A stretch of DNA of 64,000 nt, from NCBI GenBank assembly GCA_052327205.1, contig CM126210.1, forward strand, positions 163,246,001-163,310,000, given 5' to 3'. The DNA comes from Somniosus microcephalus. Its lineage: Eukaryota. Below the pieces are notes generated by a model, which saw only the letters and a program-made list of their open reading frames with translations, searched no databases and was not told where the DNA came from. Below are positions 5,804-61,514 of this stretch, piece after piece (position 1 is the first letter of the stretch; each line of letters begins with the position of its first letter). A program made the position numbers and the translations under genes.

Positions 5804-7142
5804 AACAACAACTTGCATTTATACAGCGCCTTCAACGTAGTGACGCGTCCTATGGAGTTTCACAGGAGCATTATCAAACAAAATTTGAAACCGAACCACG
5901 TAATGAGATATTAGGGCAGATGACCAAAAGCTTAGTCAAAGAGTAAGGTTGTAAGAAGCATCTTAAAGGACAGAGAGTTAGAGGGGTGGAAAGGTTTAGA
6001 GAGGAAATTTCAGAGTTTAGGGCCTTTGCAGCTGAAGGCACAGCCACCAATGGCAGAGTGATTAAAATCGTTTTTTTTTAAATTTTCAGTGTGGGCGTCA
6101 CTGTTAAGGTCGGCATTTATTGCCGATCCCTAATTGCCCTTGAGAAGGTGGTGGTGAGCCGTCTTCTTGAACCACTGCAGTCCGTCATCTTTGCAGTGGT
6201 TTGGTACGACTGAGTGGCTTGCTAGGCCATTTCAGAGGATAGTTAAGAGTCAACCACATTGATGTGGGTCTGGAGTCACATATAGGCCAGACCAGGTAAG
6301 GACGGCAGATTTCCTTCCCTAAAGGACATTAGTGAACCAGATGGGTTTTTATGAAAATCTGGTAGTTTCATGGTCACCATTTGTATTCCAAGAGGATGCT
6401 CAACAGGCCAGAATTAGAGGAGCACAGAGCCTTGTGGGGCTGGAGGAGATTACAGATATCGCAGAGCCTTGTGGGGCTGGAGCAGATTACAGAGATAGGG
6501 AGGGGCGAGGCCATGGGGGGATTTGAAAATAAGGATGAGCATTTTAAAATCGAGGCATTGCTTAACCGGGAGCCAATGTAGGTCAGCGAGCCCAGGGGAG
6601 ATGGGTAAGTGGCACTTGGTGCGAGTTAGGACATGGGCAGCAGAGTTTTGGATCACCTCAAGTTTACAGAGGGTTGAATGTGGGAGGCCGGCCAGGAGTG
6701 CATTGGAATAATCAAGTTTAGAGGTAACAAAGGCATGGATGTGGGTTTCAGCAGTAGATGAGCGGAGGCAAGGACGGAGGCGGGCAATGTTCCAGAGGTG
6801 GAAATAGGCGGTCTTAGTGATAGCACGAATTTGTGGTCGGAAGCTGATCTCGGGGTCAAATATGGCAACAAGGGTGAGAACAGTCTGATTCGGCCTCAGA
6901 CAGAGACTAGGGAGAGGGATGGAGTCGGTGGCTAGGGAATGGAATTTGTGGTGTGGACCGCAGATAATGGCTTCGGTTTTCCCAATATTTAATTGGAGGA
7001 AATTTCTGCTCATCCAGTACTGGATGTCGGACAAGCAGTCTGACAATTTAGAGACAGTGGAGGGTTTAAGAGAGGTGGAGTGAGGTAAGGCTGGGTGTCA
7101 TCAGTGTATATGTGGAAACTGGCACTGTGATTTCTCAGCCGC
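5804..7142 (-). mobile_element. 5'-truncated L2-clade LINE (RT C-terminus and 3' tail), decayed
   Basis: Minus frames give [11 protein letters not shown] (YADDTQLY motif), CLSDIQYWMSRNFLQLNIGKTEAI, LDYSNALLAGLP and LADLHWLPVKQ. The 3' tail is GGCGCTGTATAAATGCAAGTTGTTGTT at ~5804-5830. There is a local 37-bp duplication at ~6426-6497. Confidence 0.9.
6071..6392 (-). mobile_element. Internally deleted CR1-like LINE fragment nested in the L2
   Basis: It interrupts the L2 between AAAATCG and GAGGATGCTC. Its 3' end (reverse complement CACCACCTTCTCAAGGGCAATTAGGGATCGGCAATAAATGCC) resembles the copy ending at ~33580. Confidence 0.7.
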
Positions 7143-8045
7143 ACTATCAGGCTCAGGTTCAGTCTCAGACTCATTATCGGGCTCAGGTTCAGTCTCAGAC
7201 TCATTATCAGGCTCAGGTTCAGTCTCAGACTCATTATCAGGCTCAGGTTCAGTCTCAGACTCATTATCAGACTCAGGTTCAGTCTCAGACTCATTATCAG
7301 GCTCAGGTTCAGTCTCAGACTCATTATCAGGCTCAGGTTCAGTCTCAGACTCATTATCGGGCTCAGGTTCAGTCTCAGACTCATTATCAGGCTCAGGTTC
7401 AGTCTCAGACTCATTATCAGGCTCAGGTTCAGTCTCAGACTCATTATCAGACTCAGGTTCAGTCTCAGGCTCATTATCGGGCTCAGGTTCAGTCTCAGGC
7501 TCATTATCAGGCTCAGGTTCAGTCTCAGACTCATTATCAGACTCAGGTTCAGTCTCAGGCTCATTATCGGGCTCAGGTTCAGTCTCAGACTCATTATCAG
7601 ACTCAGGTTCAGTCTCAGACTCATTATCAGACTCCGGTTCAGTCTCAGGCTCATTATCAGGCTTAGGTTCAGTCTCAGACTCATTATCGGGCTCAGGTTC
7701 AGTCTCAGGCTCATTATCGGGCTCAGGTTCAGTCTCAGACTCATTATCAGACTCAGGTTCAGTCTCAGACTCATTATCAGACTCAGGTTCAGTCTCAGAC
7801 TCATTATCAGGCTCAGGTTCAGTCTCAGACTCATTATCAGGCTCAGGTTCAGTCTCAGGCTCGTTATCAGGCTCAGGTTCAGTCTCAGACTCATTATCAG
7901 GCTCAGGTTCAGTCTCAGACTCATTATCAGACTCAGGTTCAGTCTCAGACTCATTATCAGGCTCGGGTTCAGTCTCAGACTCATTATCAGGCTTAGGTTC
8001 AGTCTCAGACTCATTATCAGACTCAGGTTCAGTCTCAGACTCATT
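7143..8045. repeat. 30-bp minisatellite, ~30 units, consensus TATCAGGCTCAGGTTCAGTCTCAGACTCAT
   Basis: Exact 30-nt periodicity with few substitutions and no indels. Each unit is five NNTCA(G/T) hexamers. Confidence 0.98.
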
Positions 8046-9268
8046 GGCCCAGTAATTCGGGTCCAAATGCGTGAGTACGGTCTGGGTACTCACGCATCTG
8101 GCCGGATGAAATGCCGGCATTCAGGAAACACCGTGCATGCGGAGAACGCCGGCATTTCCGGTCCTCTGAACGAAGGGGTTCAGAGGCACAGCGCGTGCGA
8201 CTGCACAGGCAGCGCGTGCGCAGTGAACTTCGTCGATTTCATTCATGGATTCAGTGAGGGTAAGTCCTTACAAGTTACACTTGAAAAAAGCATGTGTAAA
8301 GTTGGTCCAAGGCTGCGGAGGAAGATATATTTTATCGTGGAGCTTCTGAAAGGCAATATTTTTGTTTGGGAAAGGGAGCAAAGTTATTTTAAGAAATGCT
8401 GAGGTTAGTTTTAAAGTTTAAATTTTTTTTTTTAAACGGGTTTTCAGTACAGCAGGTAGAAGGAGCAATTGTGGCTGTGTGAATTGAATGTGAGAATGAG
8501 TGTTCTAAAATGAGTAATGCAACATTTCCAACACTTTTAAGAAAGAAACTTTTCATCAGTAATAAGTAATTATGTATGTATGTATGTCCGCATATATTCC
8601 TTTACGTATATGTATGTATGTTTTATATTCCTTTACTTATGTGTATGAATGTATGTTTTTAATTATGATTTTCCAATAAGTTACTTTCTCTGAAAGTCAT
8701 AATTAAATACATACATTCATACACATAAGTAAAGGAATATATTCATACACGCAAAGGAATATATACAGACATACATACATAATTACTTAAAAGAATATAT
8801 TACTGATGGAAAGTTTCTTTCTTAAAAATGTTGGAGTCATTTTCACATTTAATAAACACAGCAAATTCAATTCACATAGCCACAATTGATCCTTCTACCT
8901 ACAGTACTGAAAACCCGTTTTAAAAAACAAAAATAAACTTTAAAACTTACCTCAGCATTTCTTAAAATAACTTTAATCCCTTTCCCAAACAACCGCAGCC
9001 TCTGGAGCAACTGTACTCATGCTTTTTTCATGTGTAAGTTGTATTGACTTGACCTCACTGAAAGCATGAATGAAAGCGGCAAATTTTACTGCGCACGCGC
9101 TGCCTGTACAGTAGCACGCGTTCTGCCTCTGAACCCCTTCGTTCAGAGGACAGGAAATGCCGGTTTTCCCCGCATGCACTGTGCATGCTGAAAACCGGCA
9201 TTTCCTCCGGACAGATGCGTAAGTACCCCGACCGTACTCGCGCGTTTGGAAGGGAATTACTGGGCCAA
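8044..9268. repeat. ~1.2-kb imperfect palindrome (arms ~8044-8673 and ~8692-9268)
   Basis: The reverse complement from 9268 inward reads TTGGCCCAGTAATTCCCTTCCAAACGCGCGAGTACGGTC..., colinear with 8044 onward up to a short central loop. ORFs 8067+ and 8973- share GIS.PLNEGVQR..AC.CTGSACAV.F. Confidence 0.95.
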
Positions 9269-9364
9269 CATTTTACATGTCAATAAAATGAAAAATTTAA
9301 CAATTGCACGATTTGCCCCCTCGCATCTGCGACTGAGGGTCCAAGGAGGTGCATTGCGCAACAG

Positions 9365-10301
9365 GTCATCGTCGTACGTATCCTCACACTGTTCCCTTTC
9401 GGGAACTGTATGAAGTGGTGGAAGGATTTCTGGCCACGTTAACACTCCTTCCGTGACCATAACCATCTTCATACCAGCCATTAGGGTGGTTAGTCCTATG
9501 GCGTGAGGGTTTTACGGGCTCCCACAACCCATCTGAGGGGGGGGGGCCACCCACACCCGCGGACGCAAGTATCCCGCTGGATGTCCACCCAGAATTTATA
9601 GTTGGAGCTCCGACTCCACTTGCCGGGACTGTCTGGAGCGGGGTTTGAAACCCTACTCCTTCTGGCCCAGTGGCGGGGATGCTTACCGCTACGCAAAAGG
9701 CCCACTCCGCGCAAAAGGTGACACCCATACGTTTCCTGCGCCTTTTCCCTCCCCGTGACTGGAGCCCTATGCTGCCACTTGAAAGACCAAGCTATCATCT
9801 GTCCTTTTTGCGGCGCCTTTGACTTCTCATTACCAATGATGAGCAGGCGCTGTGCCTCCACCTCGTTGAGGAGATTGCTGAGGTCATCATCAGTTCAATT
9901 GTGAGTTCTTTTAATGCCGTGAATTGTGCTCATTCCAGCCACTTCACGTTGCTAATCGGATTGGGCCTTTGGCGTAGCGGTAGGATCCCCGCCGCTGGGC
10001 CAGACGGGGTAGGGTTTCAAACCCCGCTCCAGACAGTCCCGGCAAGTGGAGTCGGAGCTCCGGCTCTAAATTCTGGGTTGACATCCAGTGGGATATTTGC
10101 GTCCGTGGGTGTGGGTGGCCCCCCCTCCTTGTATAGCTTGTGGGAGCCCATAAAACCCTCCCGCCATAGGACTAACCACCCTAATGGCTGGTTCAAAGAT
10201 GGTTACGGTCACGGAATGAGTGTTAATCACGGCCATAAGTCCTTCCACCACTTCATACAGTTCCCCAAAGGGAACAGTGTGAAGACACGTATGACAACGA
10301 C
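9365..10301. repeat. Second inverted repeat, ~345-bp arms (9365-9709 and 9957-10301) with ~250-bp spacer
   Basis: ORFs 9384- and 9901+ share GVGFQTPLQTVPASGVGAP...KPSRHRTNHPNGW. The nucleotide match is visible directly. Confidence 0.95.
9787..9933 (-). pseudogene. N-terminal remnant of a Harbinger-type Myb/SANT-like DNA-binding protein
   Basis: My translation is MSTIHGIKRTHN*TDDDLSNLLNEVEAQRLLIIGNEKSKAPQKGQMIAW. It fits the R..N(W/F)(S/T)..E...LL..V......L.G...........AW pattern, with a TGA at the expected W. Confidence 0.7.
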
Positions 10302-10751
10302 ATTGGTAAATAAATAAATGGAATTAAAAAAATTATTTTAGGGCTTTTAAAAGTCTTTAAATAACTTTAATTCTGTTTAAAACTACTTCAGATTCTTCAA
10401 AATAATGTAAACGTTTTAAAAAGTTTATAAAAGTTACCAAGAGCTTCATAAAAATACCAAAAACCTATTTAAAATGCTGCTTTGCATGTAAAAATGCTTA
10501 GCAGCTTGTGAGAAACATTGGGGGCGTGTCCTATTAAACTGAGACCTCAAGGGGCGTGTCTCACTTGCACAGCGCGCTCCAGGCTTCGCGCTGGCTGCAC
10601 TCCTGGGTGGCGTGACGTCAGACGCTGCCCGGGATTCTTCTTTTTCAAACACGAATTCCAGGTGTCCCTGGAGGTGAAATGTCAGCGCGTCGGGTAAGTG
10701 CATATCAGGGGCTTGCACGCGCGGCAAGCCACCGACCCGAATTACTGGGCC

Positions 10752-10872
10752 AATATCAGGCTCAGGTTCAGTCTCAGACTCATTATTAGGCTCAGGTTCA
10801 GTCTCAGACTCATTATCAGGCTCAGGTTCAGTCTCAGACTCATTATCAGGCTCAGGTTCAGTCTCAGACTCT
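10752..10872. repeat. Continuation of the 30-bp minisatellite (~4 units)
   Basis: The same unit resumes in register right after the right TIR. Confidence 0.95.
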
Positions 10873-17796: not shown

Positions 17797-18948
17797 ATGG
17801 CGACCACAGCATCTAATCATTACATTACGAGCGGCAACATCCTCACCTCCAACTCCATCGTGCACGCCGAGCCGGGGAGCATGCAACAAGGGACAGCCTA
17901 CAGGGATGCACAGAAACTGGTCCAGAACGATTACATGCAAAGCAATGGGCACCCTCTCAGCCACGCTCACCAATGGTTAACGGCTCTCTCTCACGCCGAG
18001 GGGTCTCCGTGGTCGGCCGGCGTGGCGGCCAGTCCCCTCGGCCAGCAAGACATCAAGCCCTCGGTGCAATCGGCAAGGGACGATCTCCACAGCGGGGGCA
18101 CCCTGCACCACCGGCCCCCTCACATGGTCCACCAGCACGGCAACCACCACGGAGCATGGGGCAACACCACCTCAGCCCACATCCCCAGCATGACATCCAA
18201 CGGGCAGAGCCTCATCTATTCCCAGCCGGGCTTCACGGTCAACGGCATGATCAACCCGGCAACGACCCAAGGCATGCACCACGGGCTCAGGGAAGCTCAC
18301 GAAGAACAGCACCACGGGGACCATGGTCAACACCACCAGCAGCAACATCATCAACAACAGCACCATCAGCATCAGCATCAGGGCCACGACCACTCGGACG
18401 AGGACACCCCTACCTCGGACGATTTGGAGCAGTTCGCCAAGCAGTTCAAACAGAGGAGGATCAAGCTCGGATTTACCCAGGCCGATGTGGGACTAGCTCT
18501 TGGGACCCTCTATGGCAACGTCTTCTCGCAGACCACCATCTGCAGGTTCGAAGCGCTGCAGCTGAGCTTTAAAAACATGTGCAAACTCAAACCCTTGCTG
18601 AACAAGTGGCTGGAGGAGGCTGACTCTTCGTCTGGGAGCCCCACCAGCATAGACAAAATCGCTGCCCAGGGCAGGAAGAGGAAAAAGAGGACCTCGATCG
18701 AGGTGAGCGTCAAGGGGGCTTTGGAGAGCCATTTTTTGAAGTGCCCCAAGCCCTCGGCCCAGGAGATCAGCTCTCTGGCGGACAGTCTGCAGCTGGAAAA
18801 GGAGGTGGTCAGGGTTTGGTTTTGTAACAGAAGACAAAAAGAGAAACGAATGACTCCTCCCGGAGGAGCTCACCCCGGAGCCGAGGATGTATATGGGGCC
18901 AGAGACACTCCACCGTCACATCATGGGGTTCAGACTTCTGTACAGTGA
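17797..18948 (+). CDS. POU3F2: POU domain class 3 transcription factor 2 (Brn-2), single exon, 383 aa
   Basis: N-terminus [18 protein letters not shown] motif, POU-specific domain ([25 protein letters not shown]...), homeodomain ([10 protein letters not shown]...[14 protein letters not shown]) and the POU3F2-type C-terminus GAEDVYG..DTPP.HHGVQT.VQ. The convergent FBXL4 neighbour matches known synteny. Confidence 0.96.
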
Positions 18949-56098: not shown

Positions 56099-57995
56099 AC
56101 ATCTTAGTACAGCTTCTAGGTTTTGGTCCAGCAGCTGCAAGTGGTACTTTGACTTATCAGAGCGATTGCTGAGGATATTGACTCGCACAATATTTGGCGC
56201 TGCTTGCCCTTCGCCACGACGTGCCCCATTGGCGCTGCTAGTTATTGGCTGGGCTTGCTTTCTTCTGCTGGCCTGGAGCGGTTATTCCGATTAGTCGAGT
56301 TGACCATGATGACAACGCCCCTCTCCATGTAATGTTGATGGTGCTGCCATGGTGCTGAAGTCTGGCATTTTTACCCAAGTTACGCACCATTTTAGCAGAT
56401 AACCACCAATAAGCAGTAACCAAGCAAGTAAAGCAGACACATAAAAAAAAACACACTTGTACACTTTGGTTTTCATCTTACCAACAAATGAACAAAAACG
56501 TTAAAGTGCTTATGCATACGCCGTGCAAATATGAGTATTGAGATCGCATGCTCAAGGATGATGTCTATTACTCTCTTTTAAGTTACTAATCAGAAATGCA
56601 ATTAGCAGCATCTGGATTCCCAATTAGCCGCAAGTGGCTAATGAATTGGACAACACTGGCCTAAATGATGTGCTCAAGTTCACTGCTACACACCTCTAAA
56701 TTGTCCTGGCTCTGGGTTTTGTTGATCTAGAGGCAAGTAATTATTTGTTAATGTGGACTGCTTACACTGTAGTACCTAGCCGGAGTCCATTTTTTTGGTC
56801 AGGTTTAATTTTTGTTTAGTTTCTTATAGAGTATTAAACTAAAATAAAATCATTCTCCAGGGGAGTGAGGTACATTTTGTTAAAGTGCTGCTTTAAATGA
56901 CTAAAATAGAGTCAACAAATGACATGCCTTGCTAGAGGATTGTCTTCAATTGAGTTCAATAAAGCCTTGCACTGTACTACAGACCAACAAAGCTCAAGAA
57001 GTTGGCAGACAAAAACAGCTTGATATTTAACATGTTTGCCTTTTCCGAGTATTTTTTTTTGACAGAGGCAGCTTTCTCGAACACAGCATAAGTGGACATG
57101 GCTCGTTTCTCTCATTGCAGAAGTTTCCTTAATTTTGCAGTGTACACGTCATATAGCACTAAGTTAACAAGAAACAGAGGCTGGTAAGACTACCATTAGT
57201 ATCCACCCAGCCCTACTGGCACACAGCTGCTGCTTAGGGTGCTTGGAGGCAGGGGATTATCAGTTTTACTGATAATATTCATTTAATTAATAAGAGTATT
57301 TCCCTCAGTCTATTAGGGATGGGGGAGGGGAGGATTATAACCAAGCACTGCAATGCTTTAAAATAACACTGTAGTCTCTAAGCACTATTCAAAATGTCAC
57401 AAACTGCAAAGAATACAAACCGGCTTAATTTTATTGTACAGAGATTAGGTCTAAGATCAGATATAATGAATTCTTGGTTTTCCAATGTAGAATATACAAA
57501 AATAGGCTGGAAGTTGGATTAAAAGCAAACTTTTAAAAAAAAACTCTCTTTTAAAAGTGGACGCCTTCGCTTTTTCTGGAAACCTTACCACAGCATAAAT
57601 GTTTACAATGTACCCAGTTTCCATGGTAGAGTTCACCTGGCTGGTACTAAGCTTAGTAAATTTAAAAAAAAAAATTCTGAAAAACTCAAAGGGGCTAAAT
57701 TCGACAAGGCCTGAAAACAGGCGTGGGGATCGCGATGTGTAATCTGCCCGCGCCTGTTGAAAGTAATGCAGGCAGCACACAATATTGGTGCTGCCTGCTC
57801 ATTAACATGATTGAAGCACTGAGCCCAGCGCTGCTGGTTGGCTGAGCGCTCAGCAGGGGGGCCAATTTCACGGGAAGTGATCTCTTTTTAAAGCTAGCCT
57901 GCAGTGTGAAACGCAGTCTGCACTTCTTAAAGGGGAGGTGCTTGCTAAAATAAGCACCTCACTGTAACTGTTGCAAAGAAAAGTGGAAGGTAGCT

Positions 57996-59510
57996 ATGGC
58001 TGAACAGGGCAGAGAAAGGGTACCTAGGTTCTCCGACACATCACTAGAGGCCTCAGTACAGGGGGTCGAAAGGAGGAGACAAGTCCTCTACCTGCAGGGG
58101 GCCAGGAGGCCTTCCAGACTGAAAGGCGGCAGTGGGAGCAGATTACTGAAGCCGTCAGTGCCACCAGTCTTTTCCCCCAGGAACTGGATCCAGTGCCAAA
58201 AGATGTTTAATGACCTCACACGAGTGGTGAAGGTGAGTGAGTGCATCTTCAAATGCCATATCCCACCAACTGCACCACTAGCCTCACACACTGCTCAATG
58301 CACCATACCCTCATCACTCACCTACCAGTAATCTCTAGCAATCACGACTCATACTCACACTCAAAGTTTCACCTCACCCTCACATCTCACACTTTGTGCA
58401 CACAGTCAGCTATTCAACCATGAAAGGCATATCACCCAAACACATTGCACCACACTCTCAGACACACTTCCCTTTCTCTTACAGGCCAAGGTGGCGCATA
58501 ACTGGCGCCAGCAGCAAGCAGGCAGGCACGGCTGCATATCCTGACCCAGCTGGAGGTGACGGTGCTAGACATCATTGGAGAGAGCGTCACTGAGGCCGTG
58601 GTGATCGGCGAGGCTGAAACCATTGATGATGACGGTATGCTCATACCTAATCCTCCTTCTCACATCCCACTTCCTCCTCATTCCACAATCTCTTCTCACT
58701 TATAAGTTACAGATAATGCAAGCATGCACATCTTGCTTCTCCCCCGCACCCCCCTCACCACAACCCGACCCTTGTGCCTTTCTCCTTTCAGATACCAAAG
58801 AACTCCAACCAGCCCAGCCAGTGCAGGAAGAACAAGAGGAAAATGATGGAGAAGAAGCACCACCATCACCCGATCCGACACTCCCAGGCACCAGCTCAGA
58901 AAATGACACTGCGCGTACTTTAGAGGTAGTATAGAGACGGGATCTGCACGTGGTGAGTCACCATGCACGAATGGCCTGCAGCCAAGGCAGGGGAAAAGGT
59001 AGCGCAGGTGCCAGCTCTGCAGACGCCGAGGTTACACACAAGTTCTGCTGCAGAGGAGTCAGATGAGGACTTTGATGGGGCGGCCTTCAGAAGAAGGGTG
59101 ATGGCATGCACAGAGAAATGTTTGGTGCATTGGCAGGCTAGCCAGAGAGCCTGTTGTCACTGTCAAGGAGCATGATGGAGTCCGGCTCCAACCTTGCACA
59201 GGGCTTTGCGCAGAGCTTGGACCCCATGATTTCCAGGATGGAAGTGACAGACAACTCTATTAGAGCACTTGTGGACCCAACCATGATGCAGGATCTGATG
59301 GGTGATGTCTTGGCCTCAATTGCAGCACAAGTGGAAGCGACCCAAAGTCTGAGTGCTGCAGTGGAAGCTCAGATGGCTCTCATGCAGGCTCAGTTTGCTG
59401 CCATCGTGACTGTGTTTACCAGTGTGGAAAGGGACTTGCAGGGTCTCACAGCAGTCCAGCAATCTGTCCACCAACAGATTACTAGGATTGCTGAGGTGGA
59501 GAAGTGTTGA
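57996..59510 (+). pseudogene. Harbinger Myb/SANT-like partner gene, spliced and frameshifted
   Basis: MAEQGRERVPRFSDTSLEASVQGVERRRQVLY...WEQITEAVSA...RNWIQCQKMFNDL. Putative exons are 57996-58232, 58485-58634 and 58792-~59510, with GT-AG introns. The tail is acidic and coiled-coil-like. Confidence 0.8.
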
Positions 59511-59519
59511 GCAACGGGG

Positions 59520-60620
59520 ATCTGGGGTTTCATTCAGGGGAAGCGGAGTCTGATGATGCGCTCACAGACAGCCTGTCCAGAATGTGGATTTGCAGGCTGC
59601 CTCCTCCCTTCCTCCTACTGAGATGGTCGCGGAATCCATGGTGGCAAGGGCTGTGCCCTCATGATGGCCCAAGTTGTGGAGGATGCAGCAGACCACCACG
59701 AAATGAGACACCTGCTCCGGCGAGTACTGGAGGGCTCCTCCCGAGCAGTCAAGGCAGCGGAAGCATTGCTTGAGCACCCCGATGGTCTGCTCAATGACGT
59801 TTCTCATGGCAGCATGGCTGTCATTATGAGTGCTGGCCACAAGTGGTGGGGTTGTAAAGGGGAGCCATCAGCCAAGTGTACAGCGGATAGCCCTCGTTGC
59901 CTCGCAGCCACCCTTGGGTTCGACGTGGTAGCTGGAAGATTGCTGGCACAGCAGACTGGCGCAGGATGCAGGCATCATGACCGCTGCCAGGATACCTGGC
60001 ATTCACCATCATGATGTGCTGGGCGTGGTCTCACACCAACTTCACATTAATGAGTAACCTTTGCGGTTATGGAACATCTCAATATTGATATGCGATGTCC
60101 GCAAAGCCACCTGTATGCAGTCGATGGCGCCCTGCACCATGGGGAAGCCCAATATCCTGGCAAAGCTACGTGTGCGCTCCTCCTTAGAGAGAAGACAATG
60201 AAGTCCCCTCTCAGAGTACAGAGCCTCTGTGACCTCCCGGATGCAGCGGTGGATGATGAACTACGAGATATGTTTATGTCACCTGTTCCAGCCTGGAAGG
60301 ATCCGCTGGCCAAAAAATTCATGGCCACAGTCACCTTGAGGGCCACTGGCAGAGCCTTCGTTGCCTTGCTCTGAAGATGCAGGCCTGGTTCCAAGAGGTG
60401 GGAAGAGTTCTGTGATCACCTCTTTGGTGAAGCTGAGGTGCCAAACGCACTGCTCCTGGCTTAGATGCAGGTAGAAGTGCTCCCTGAAGACCCTAGGTGG
60501 GCAAGGCCTCCTGCTGAGAGCCCTCCTCCCCCTCCTGCTCTTCCCTCTGCGAGCAGCTTGTCTTTGCTGCCTCTTCCTTTCATGCTGCAGTGCGAGGTGG
60601 ACTGCAAATAGAGCCGCCAT
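59520..60620 (-). pseudogene. HARBI1-like DDE transposase, frameshifted
   Basis: ALPVALKVTVAMNFLASGSFQ, VNARYPGSGHDACIL, GWLRGNEGYPLYTWLMAP and HNDSHAAMRNVIEQTIGVLKQCFRCLD...CCILHNL occur in successive frames. Confidence 0.92.
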
Positions 60621-61201
60621 GACTGGGAGCAAGTGGTGTACTCAGAGGCCTTCCAGTAGCAGCCAACACCTTCTCAATGTCCAGCAGCACTCCCTGCTCA
60701 CTTTAACAACCTTTTAAATGTCTTCCAGCAAGCCAGTACTCATACAAACTCTGCAAGAGCCAGTACAAGAGAAATAATCAACTTACCTGCAAGTTGGATG
60801 TTTCCCTTTAAATTACGCTGGTGGGGTCCCTCGTGCAACTGAATGCACGTTCAGCTGTGTGTGTTTAGGAGAGGGCGTTGAATGGAGCGCGATGTCAAAA
60901 ATGGCAGGTCGTGCATCAAATCAGCATTGCACGCTGACTGGCGTCATGATCTGCATACCGCCAGCGTCTGTGCCAGAAGTGGGCAAAGCGGACGCCAATT
61001 AAAAAAAACTTTTAACTACCGGTGCTAATGTGCCGAATTCTGCAGCCAACAGGTGTGACCAAGAAACTGGAAAATATGAATTGCGAGGGAAAATATATCT
61101 TGTGAACACTTTTTTGAAATCAAACCATTTTTTCCCTATACAAAAGGCTGTAAATTCCAAAGCACATTCGCAAGTCTCAGTCTGCTAACCTATTTTCTTA
61201 C

Positions 61202-61514
61202 CTAATATATCCACATGGAATAGATGAGGGCAATTTGTAGCCAGCTCCTCGATATCTGTGTCACAAACAGATCTATTGGCTGTCAGGAAGATCTTGCGCA
61301 AGTTGGGAAGCTTGCGAGCGAGCCTCATAAAGCATCCAGTACTGCTCTGTAATGTCGGGCACCATCCAAGGTCCAGTTCTTCCAGGAGCCGACAGCCTGC
61401 TACTATAGCAGCGATGCCATTTTCTGTGATATTTTTACATCTCCAGAGATCGAGGGATCGCAGGTTTTTACACTTGGCACCGATTACGCTTGCCACAAGG
61501 TCATAGTCATCAAC
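61202..61514 (-). CDS. FBXL4: FBXL4 penultimate coding exon (leucine-rich repeats), 313 nt
   Basis: Acceptor TGTCTAG|GTT and donor TTAG|GTAAGA. It translates [34 protein letters not shown]...[16 protein letters not shown]...[17 protein letters not shown]...DIL(G). Confidence 0.95.

Follow-up and report, generated by a model that had tools for sequence, protein, structure and literature searches.

A 64,000-nt stretch of Somniosus microcephalus DNA (assembly GCA_052327205.1, contig CM126210.1, positions 163,246,001 to 163,310,000), hereafter the window, holds a 2,706-bp element that interrupts a 30-bp minisatellite, with ATT on its left flank and AAT on its right (Table 1). An earlier interpretation made from the letters alone (the sequence-only reading) had proposed a non-autonomous Harbinger-like transposon built from two long fold-backs. 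Our results indicate that this is very probably a high-copy Harbinger-type transposon in which both fold-backs, hairpins 1 and 2, were fixed in the master copy and the hairpins travel as passengers.

Table 1. Features of the element and of its insertion site (window coordinates; TIR, terminal inverted repeat; SINE, short interspersed element).
Feature	Coordinates	Strand	Basis
30-bp minisatellite, left part, 30 units	7133..8045	+	
Left flank ATT, original target within a minisatellite unit	8043..8045	+	vote of empty units
Whole non-autonomous Harbinger-type element, youngest-looking 2.7-kb subfamily	8046..10751	+	genome matches, unique flanks, 3-bp target duplications
Left TIR, 18 bp	8046..8063	+	perfect pair with right TIR
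Outer arm of hairpin 1: left end of the clan with its TIR, subterminal palindromes and the region upstream of the transposase gene	8046..8673	+	70–79% identity to bases 1–650 of autonomous elements
Hairpin 1 loop, 18 nt	8674..8691	-	prolongs parent left-end sequence to a 5-bp natural inverted repeat; alignment with six parents
Inner arm of hairpin 1: left end of the clan in inverted orientation, with the internal TIR (9249–9266) as its terminus	8692..9266	-	tree grouping with L206/L207
AAC target joining inverted left end to parent body	9267..9269	+	AAC and next bases in L199/L200 without TIR; junction 24-mer with 4,412 matches
SINE copy 1 (hairpin 2 left arm)	9365..9709	-	94% to free-SINE consensus; 10-bp target duplication 9357–9366 / 9710–9719
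Remnant of Myb/SANT gene first exon, cut by 1.4–1.5-kb deletion near 9785	9784..9951	-	75% identity with parent L212 across 56 aa (E 7e-25)
SINE copy 2 (hairpin 2 right arm)	9956..10301	+	95% to free-SINE consensus; target duplication 9946–9955 / 10300–10309
Right end of parent, unpaired; control region for editing	10302..10751	+	common to autonomous and 1-kb elements
Right TIR, 18 bp	10734..10751	-	perfect pair with left TIR
Right flank AAT, target mismatch; putative donor-site carry-over	10752..10754	+	AAT/ATT pairs in 23/139 copies
30-bp minisatellite, right part, 4 units	10754..10871	+	

The element is bounded by a perfect pair of 18-bp TIRs (8046–8063 and 10734–10751), as the sequence-only reading had it, and the third, degenerate TIR claimed inside was found as well; it ends at 9266, its outer 13 bases are exact, and AAC follows. 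The internal TIR (9254–9266) and the right TIR are direct repeats, which gives a left end and a right end the same orientation. The arms of the two inverted repeats (8046–8673/8692–9266 and 9365–9709/9957–10301) were computed to occupy 70% of the element length, in agreement with the earlier estimate. Those of hairpin 1 differ by 63 mismatches in 563 aligned pairs and by 78 gap columns (85% in the outer 274 bp) and form perfect stems of up to 33 bp; those of hairpin 2 differ by 33 mismatches in 344 pairs. The folding energy was -703 kcal/mol for hairpin 2 (z -65, 20 shuffles) and -776 kcal/mol for hairpin 1, the latter a value without shuffle comparison. Differences between the hairpin 1 arms (8046–9266) are transversions in 47 of 69 cases, often in doublets, which is unlike ordinary ageing. 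The CpG observed/expected ratio is 0.83 in the element vs. 0.48–0.63 in the rest of the window, so that the CpGs are abundant as claimed. Yet young copies diverge from the consensus by 3.75% at CpG sites vs. 0.70% at other sites, a fivefold faster change, and the CpGs are therefore intact owing to the youth of this copy; the family is presumably methylated. The window copy itself lies 0.8% from its subfamily consensus.

Among 40 scored matches in the source genome, to which all genome counts below refer, 39 were near full length at 96–100% identity, and the copies sit at unique flanks with 3-bp target duplications. A 24-mer across the internal TIR junction gave 4,412 exact matches and a 41-mer across the hairpin 1 apex 5,024, with 0 for the controls of both. 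The overlap of the two markers within the initial 110 Mb of contig C1 (67/100) leads by capture-recapture to roughly 6,600–7,100 copies, a rough figure as the markers are not independent. About 7,000 copies amount to some 17 Mb, or 0.27% of the genome, with one copy per about 0.9 Mb. A rearrangement at a single locus or an assembly artefact is hardly credible as a source of this layout, given thousands of dispersed copies, each with its own flanks, and the occurrence of element words (at 0.27–0.76) in six public runs from four studies with three organism labels.

Of 80 unselected junction copies, drawn consecutively along contig C1, 79 had both arms of hairpin 2 and 69 the full layout, which bears out the mobile double-hairpin structure that had been proposed. 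Twenty apex matches lacking the exact junction comprised 18 full composites (elements with both hairpins) and 2 truncated ones. As measured on the 30 copies nearest to the window copy (mean 1.0% from the consensus), each copy keeps on average 59 of the 63 arm mismatches of hairpin 1 and 32 of the 33 of hairpin 2. Mismatches common to young copies must already have been in the master copy, as the sequence-only reading had supposed, and the check that it named, whether other copies share both hairpins along with the same mismatches, came out positive across the sampled copies. Among the 71 unselected copies with both ends, 42 belonged to a 2.27-kb, 13 to a 2.5-kb and 15 to a 2.76-kb subfamily, and 1 was of the window type. 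These four subfamilies differ chiefly in their outer ends and in deletions inside hairpin 1, and the spread within each is just 0.8–1.8%.

Loci with a perfect TIR (n = 40) were in 34 cases simple elements of 765 bp or 1 kb having the ends of the composite. Within the simple elements (L073–L111), L088 and L100 have an outer left end 93–96% identical to that of the window subfamily, and L065 corresponds to the inner one. Three further loci showed unusual arrangements: L115 joins two composites head to head, L068 has the whole of hairpin 1 flipped, and in L090 a composite is nested within a simple element. Arm recombination or alternative transposition may have left these traces.

A search of the source genome for the transposase domain PF13359 gave 96,623 first-look candidates; 150 were scored, and open 386-aa frames were seen in many of these. 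The top 30 loci included 28 with the left-end sequence of the group of related elements, here called the clan, and 1 more with the body. The Harbinger expansion in this genome thus appears very large and recent. Twenty loci were extended and used as the parent set. Full parents (4.6–5.1 kb) encode a transposase on the + strand (PF13359, E 6e-44, 386 aa) and a Myb/SANT gene on the - strand (PF13873, E 1e-11); in six parents of 3.55 kb the Myb gene is short by 1.4–1.5 kb and one SINE has been gained. The composite body is 97–98% identical to parent L199 and has its Myb deletion. What is left of that gene, at 9951–9784, are the first 56 codons of Myb exon 1; a Pfam scan of this spacer remnant by itself found no domain, and its identity came only via the parent exon (PF13873). 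The TIR type and the 650-bp left end are common to the composite and its autonomous parents. With parents encoding a DDE transposase and a Myb protein recovered from the source genome, the proposed descent as a non-autonomous Harbinger-type derivative was upheld. The nearest database proteins to the clan transposase are shark HARBI1-like proteins (60–67%). A teleost survey describes Harbingers as undetected in elephant shark and recommends checking other members of this group (PMC9179366).

Target duplications of 3 bp were exact in 19 of 30 young copies, with 0–1 at lengths of 4–10 bp. We counted flanks for 139 clan elements (among L001–L258; L062, L067 and L139, internal TIRs mis-called as simple elements, were left out) and found that the duplication was exact in 83; the others comprised 23 AAT/ATT pairs, 25 cases of AWT/other, 7 of other/other and a single reverse-complement pair. 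The exact set holds AAT 34 times, ATT 32 times, and AGT and ACT once each (ANT in 68/83); AWT (AAT/ATT) thus makes up 66/83, in palindromic context, and TAA or TTA 0/83. [quoted passage not shown] According to Han et al. 2015 (PMC4482050), strict PIF/Harbinger elements have a TWA duplication, and the Pangu group of the PHIS superfamily has an ANT duplication, GG-initial TIRs and a second open reading frame (ORF) without known motif. The clan shares with PIF/Harbinger the short G-initial TIRs, the 3-bp duplication and parents with a DDE transposase and a Myb/SANT gene, and the element differs in its AWT instead of TWA target, three termini, two internal fold-backs and SINE pair. With Pangu as described there it shares the ANT duplication, including AWT, and GG-initial TIRs, whereas its second ORF is of Myb/SANT type. 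Judged from these features, the element is a non-autonomous PIF/Harbinger-type transposon and would work like PIF/Harbinger within PHIS.

The window copy, with its ATT/AAT flanks, is one case of the AAT/ATT mismatch. A clean insertion into one minisatellite unit had been claimed; a single minisatellite is indeed split, but the empty units are ATT by 34 of 38 votes and the right AAT is therefore no true copy of the target. Young copies have AAT/ATT pairs in 4/30 vs. 0.05 expected from the A/T exchange rate (p 3e-7), and the similar share in older sets (13/69 and 6/34) points to the time of insertion. Single flank mismatches lie at the middle base in 28/43 cases (p 2e-5). Empty paralogous sites were available for 13 of the AAT/ATT pairs; in 11 of these they gave AAT or ATT as the target, the foreign side lying on the left in 8 and on the right in 3. 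At L100 and L229 matching flanks disagree with the empty sites, as expected if donor bases won both sides. We lean towards donor bases that travel on the element ends and are resolved as a mismatch at the new site, and the main rival is conversion between copies running into the flank. Fold-back correction between the TIRs was also considered as a cause and is disfavoured by the 25 AWT/other pairs, only 1 non-AWT pair being a reverse complement. PiggyBac reportedly causes mutations at non-canonical sites.

Among related excision mechanisms, a cut outside the target duplication with 5′ overhangs was proposed for mPing (PMC4561436), and staggered excision outside the target duplication was described for piggyBac (PMC7351741). 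Excision of this kind predicts that the excised element carries donor bases, hence mismatched flanks, although the passages on excision in these two papers contain no report of mismatched flanks at new Harbinger insertions.

Of the two claimed fold-backs, both exist as long inverted repeats, but hairpin 2 consists of two separate SINE insertions and is not a fold-back duplication. Its arms are 90% identical to each other. The site of SINE 1 is empty in parent L214 and filled in L199–L205, and that of SINE 2 is empty in L199 and L201, which both have SINE 1; SINE 1 alone, without SINE 2, was present in 7 of the top 30 PF13359 loci. A 10-bp duplication borders each copy and parents hold either site empty, so that hairpin 2 goes back to two independent insertions, head to head and 250 bp apart. 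With a pattern for free SINEs that shut out the composite context, 17 matches were obtained; 12 were free (311–351 bp), and 9 of these 12 had 7–12-bp target duplications and a (GAC)n tail. A free-type marker had 1,548 matches, with 0 of 31 checked near a composite marker. The free 340-bp SINE (L153–L167) is apparently young (2.9% from the consensus), with at least about 1,500 free copies; AC is the start of its target duplications and overlaps the (GAC)n tail. Composites hold at least 8,800 SINE copies by junction count vs. the 1,548 free-type matches, both lower bounds obtained with different markers; most copies of the SINE would thus have arisen as hitch-hikers within a DNA transposon.

As to the origin of the SINE, no Rfam tRNA match was found for its head, which matches another SINE-like head weakly (E 0.008–0.025). 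In SINE 2 there are motifs that we take for an A-box-like (9970–9980) and a B-box-like (10013–10024) sequence. No match to the SINE 3′ end borne by a long interspersed element (LINE) was found in the 1.24 Mb examined, a genome-wide search not having been made. (TAAA)n was rejected as the SINE tail, these bases being those of the parent element and the real tail (GAC)n, and sub-threshold Rfam microRNA-hairpin matches at the apex were rejected as generic hairpin hits. The internal inverted repeats of Tol2 derive from Angel, and the present element is likewise a DNA transposon with an internal inverted repeat taken from another element. It differs in that the internal repeat is a retroposon pair with its own target duplications, and in having a second hairpin made of its own end.

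The arms of hairpin 1 correspond to parent bases 1 to about 650–677, and the transposase ATG lies at 852–862, i.e., ~200 bp further. The AAC at the internal junction is present without a TIR in L199 and L200, and the inverted left end would therefore have come by transposition at AAC. From the inner arm into the 18-nt loop the sequence tracks that of the parents up to a 5-bp inverted repeat and then reverses, a course that fold-back priming would produce. In a tree of the first 290–300 bases (44 rows: 20 parents and at most 3 copies for each arm of a subfamily), the outer and inner arms of every subfamily fell in one group (100/99) next to L206/L207. The body donor L199 lay apart from this group, and parent L217 was placed among the outer arms. 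Hairpin 1 likely formed through fold-back copying of the left end inserted backwards. In maize double-Ds and sesqui-Ds an extra end is inserted backwards, and there too a left end and a right end come to share one orientation, in another superfamily than that of the element studied here. By analogy with double-Ds, hairpin 1 could stem from two different elements nested head to head, with the middle deleted and no fold-back copying. The genuine target at the internal TIR and the limited likeness of the arms (79–91% by subfamily) fit such an origin, and later arm conversion could mimic the grouping of the arms with a single lineage. As both arms group with one parent lineage other than the body donor, and as the loop keeps parent sequence up to the 5-bp inverted repeat, we regard it as rather improbable.

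Arm identity in hairpin 1 is 79–91% by subfamily, with one subfamily at 87–97% and nearly identical arms in L124. The outer ends follow other parents and the inner arm is conserved across subfamilies; arms and ends appear still to be exchanged between subfamilies. That the inner arm persists while the outer end is replaced, and that arms have become alike in one subfamily and in L124, could also mean that the extra inverted left end is kept for mobility, either by offering more sites for Myb protein or transposase or by arm-to-arm repair that refreshes the outer end, hairpin 1 being selected at the level of the element. The composite was more numerous than perfect-TIR simple elements in the counts made, which would agree with this; the counts rest on different markers, however, and the 765-bp and 1-kb simple elements with matching ends are abundant too (34 of the 40 perfect-TIR loci). 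We consider such selection unlikely, if somewhat less so than nested elements. Hairpin 1 was rejected as a free MITE, being alone in 0/11 and 0/20 targeted matches, and its never being found alone suggests a need for both a left and a right end.

To compare transcripts with genomic sequence, two raw RNA runs (one study and one organism, perhaps of another species than the window) were set against two contig runs, with counts for the whole element and for the unpaired right end; those for the fold-back part were derived by subtraction. In the RNA runs the fold-back part had A>G plus T>C changes at 214 and 264 places vs. 162 and 193 transversions, and the unpaired end 19 and 19 vs. 74 and 84 (p 1e-8 and 3e-11). 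In the contig runs there were 46 and 47 such changes vs. 100 and 100 transversions, with no contrast to the control region (p 0.5 and 0.6). Between RNA and contigs the fold-back part differs (p about 1e-7) and the control does not. RNA reads cover hairpin 1 on both strands. The A>G/T>C excess is the signature expected of adenosine-to-inosine (A-to-I) editing of double-stranded RNA (dsRNA). Hairpin RNA was probably formed, and to that extent the element can be seen as the hairpin-RNA source envisaged by the sequence-only reading. A joint at 8501–8575 in the RNA is a DNA deletion of another subfamily, also present in the contig runs. Inverted Alu repeats are the main ADAR substrates in primates. 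Like them, hairpin 2 consists of one SINE in two oppositely oriented copies, separated by about 250 bp and probably edited upon transcription; the difference is that a DNA transposon has multiplied a single fixed pair, which was not formed anew at each locus.

Transcription on both strands with edited-looking reads, perfect stems of up to 33 bp and an inverted duplication of a 5′ end with its TIR, the layout of Mu killer, together raise the question of silencing. Dicing of hairpin 1 RNA could yield small RNAs against the left end of the whole clan, which bears the promoter, and so silence it, as with Mu killer but in a self-spreading form. We find this very unlikely. The arms stop ~200 bp before the transposase ATG, so that no coding sequence would be targeted; four subfamilies were amplified with a spread of just 0.8–1.8%, and many parents have open 386-aa frames. 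RNA editing and arm mismatch hinder dicing, and the editing and the 11–21% arm mismatch would do so here. The continued activity of the clan after the element arose is an argument against strong silencing. Equally improbable is the wider notion of a vertebrate transposon that carries a silencing hairpin of its own and spreads it, as a Mu-killer-like cassette that is mobile, present in ~7,000 copies and held in check by A-to-I editing, with the inverted SINE pair as a second source of dsRNA. Mu killer and Ac killer of maize are described as single loci with an inverted duplication of the transposon 5′ end including transposase coding sequence, and as demonstrated silencers (PMC3440606; 10.1101/2020.01.07.897926). 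The element shares with these loci, as reported there, the inverted duplication of a DNA transposon 5′ end that can give hairpin RNA. It is mobile, in thousands of copies, and its arms end before the coding region, whereas those are single loci with coding sequence and proven silencers; the likeness is structural. A selfish passenger, with hairpins that arose by accident in the master copy and spread unhindered, is the simplest reading.

We propose that an autonomous element of 4.6–5.1 kb with genes for a DDE transposase and a Myb protein lost most of its Myb gene and gained SINE 1. A clan left end would then have inserted backwards at an AAC target and been mirrored by fold-back to give hairpin 1, and SINE 2 would have landed opposite SINE 1 to complete hairpin 2. 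The resulting element likely moves with the transposase and Myb protein of autonomous relatives. Mobilisation in trans would need one left and one right end, hairpin 1 alone being immobile, and ends may have been exchanged with whichever autonomous lineage was active. Read-through transcripts likely fold to dsRNA and would be A-to-I edited as a by-product. In this course of events we infer which of the last two steps came first, how the fold-back arose, the mobilisation in trans, the exchange of ends and the passenger status of the hairpins; the number of copies, the arm mismatches that they share, the parents with their empty sites, the target duplications of the two SINEs and the A>G/T>C excess were observed.

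Several observations weigh against this interpretation. Intermediates with hairpin 1 and one SINE, or with two SINEs and no hairpin 1, numbered 0 in 100 composites and 20 parents, so that the order given for the last two steps is tentative. The exchange of arms and ends between subfamilies blurs the left-end tree. The two RNA runs come from one study of an organism that is perhaps not the species of the window, and their reads derive from the whole clan, including simple MITE ends, free SINEs and autonomous ends. Contigs drop rare variants, and the type of the contig runs is unrecorded. Subtraction lumps hairpin 1 with hairpin 2, and the editing signal belongs to the family level and not to this copy.

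In the rest of the window, an ORF with a POU domain and a homeodomain starts at 17800; from its N-terminus we take it to be POU3F2. The place of the element 7 kb upstream of this gene needs no explanation because there is one copy per about 0.9 Mb, and the significance earlier attached to the nearness of POU3F2 has no weight. A decayed Harbinger of another family occupies ~57690–61050, with TIR-like ends near 57691 and 61047, transposase pieces on the - strand (59565–59867, PF13359 E 2e-11) that are 31–49% identical to the clan enzyme, and a weak Myb-like exon on the + strand (58014–58259). At 6450–8045 the 30-bp minisatellite has apparently expanded within a decayed frame on the - strand, presumably of a LINE reverse transcriptase by its motif; Pfam gave no hit for this LINE-like frame. 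A leucine-rich-repeat exon on the - strand (61185–61511) is possibly FBXL4, which we assume as a neighbour of POU3F2.

We found no literature describing this family or layout, and a prior entry in Dfam or Repbase is possible. If donor bases do enter the new site, such elements would mutate their targets, and the flank mismatch would be a genomic test of staggered PIF/Harbinger excision. Each step of the assembly, bar the last two, is preserved in the source genome. The element points to a route by which a DNA transposon may mass-produce ready-made dsRNA, in ~7,000 copies with two long hairpins each. For cartilaginous fish, it would provide a defined, near-identical set of likely ADAR substrates and a test bed for dsRNA tolerance.

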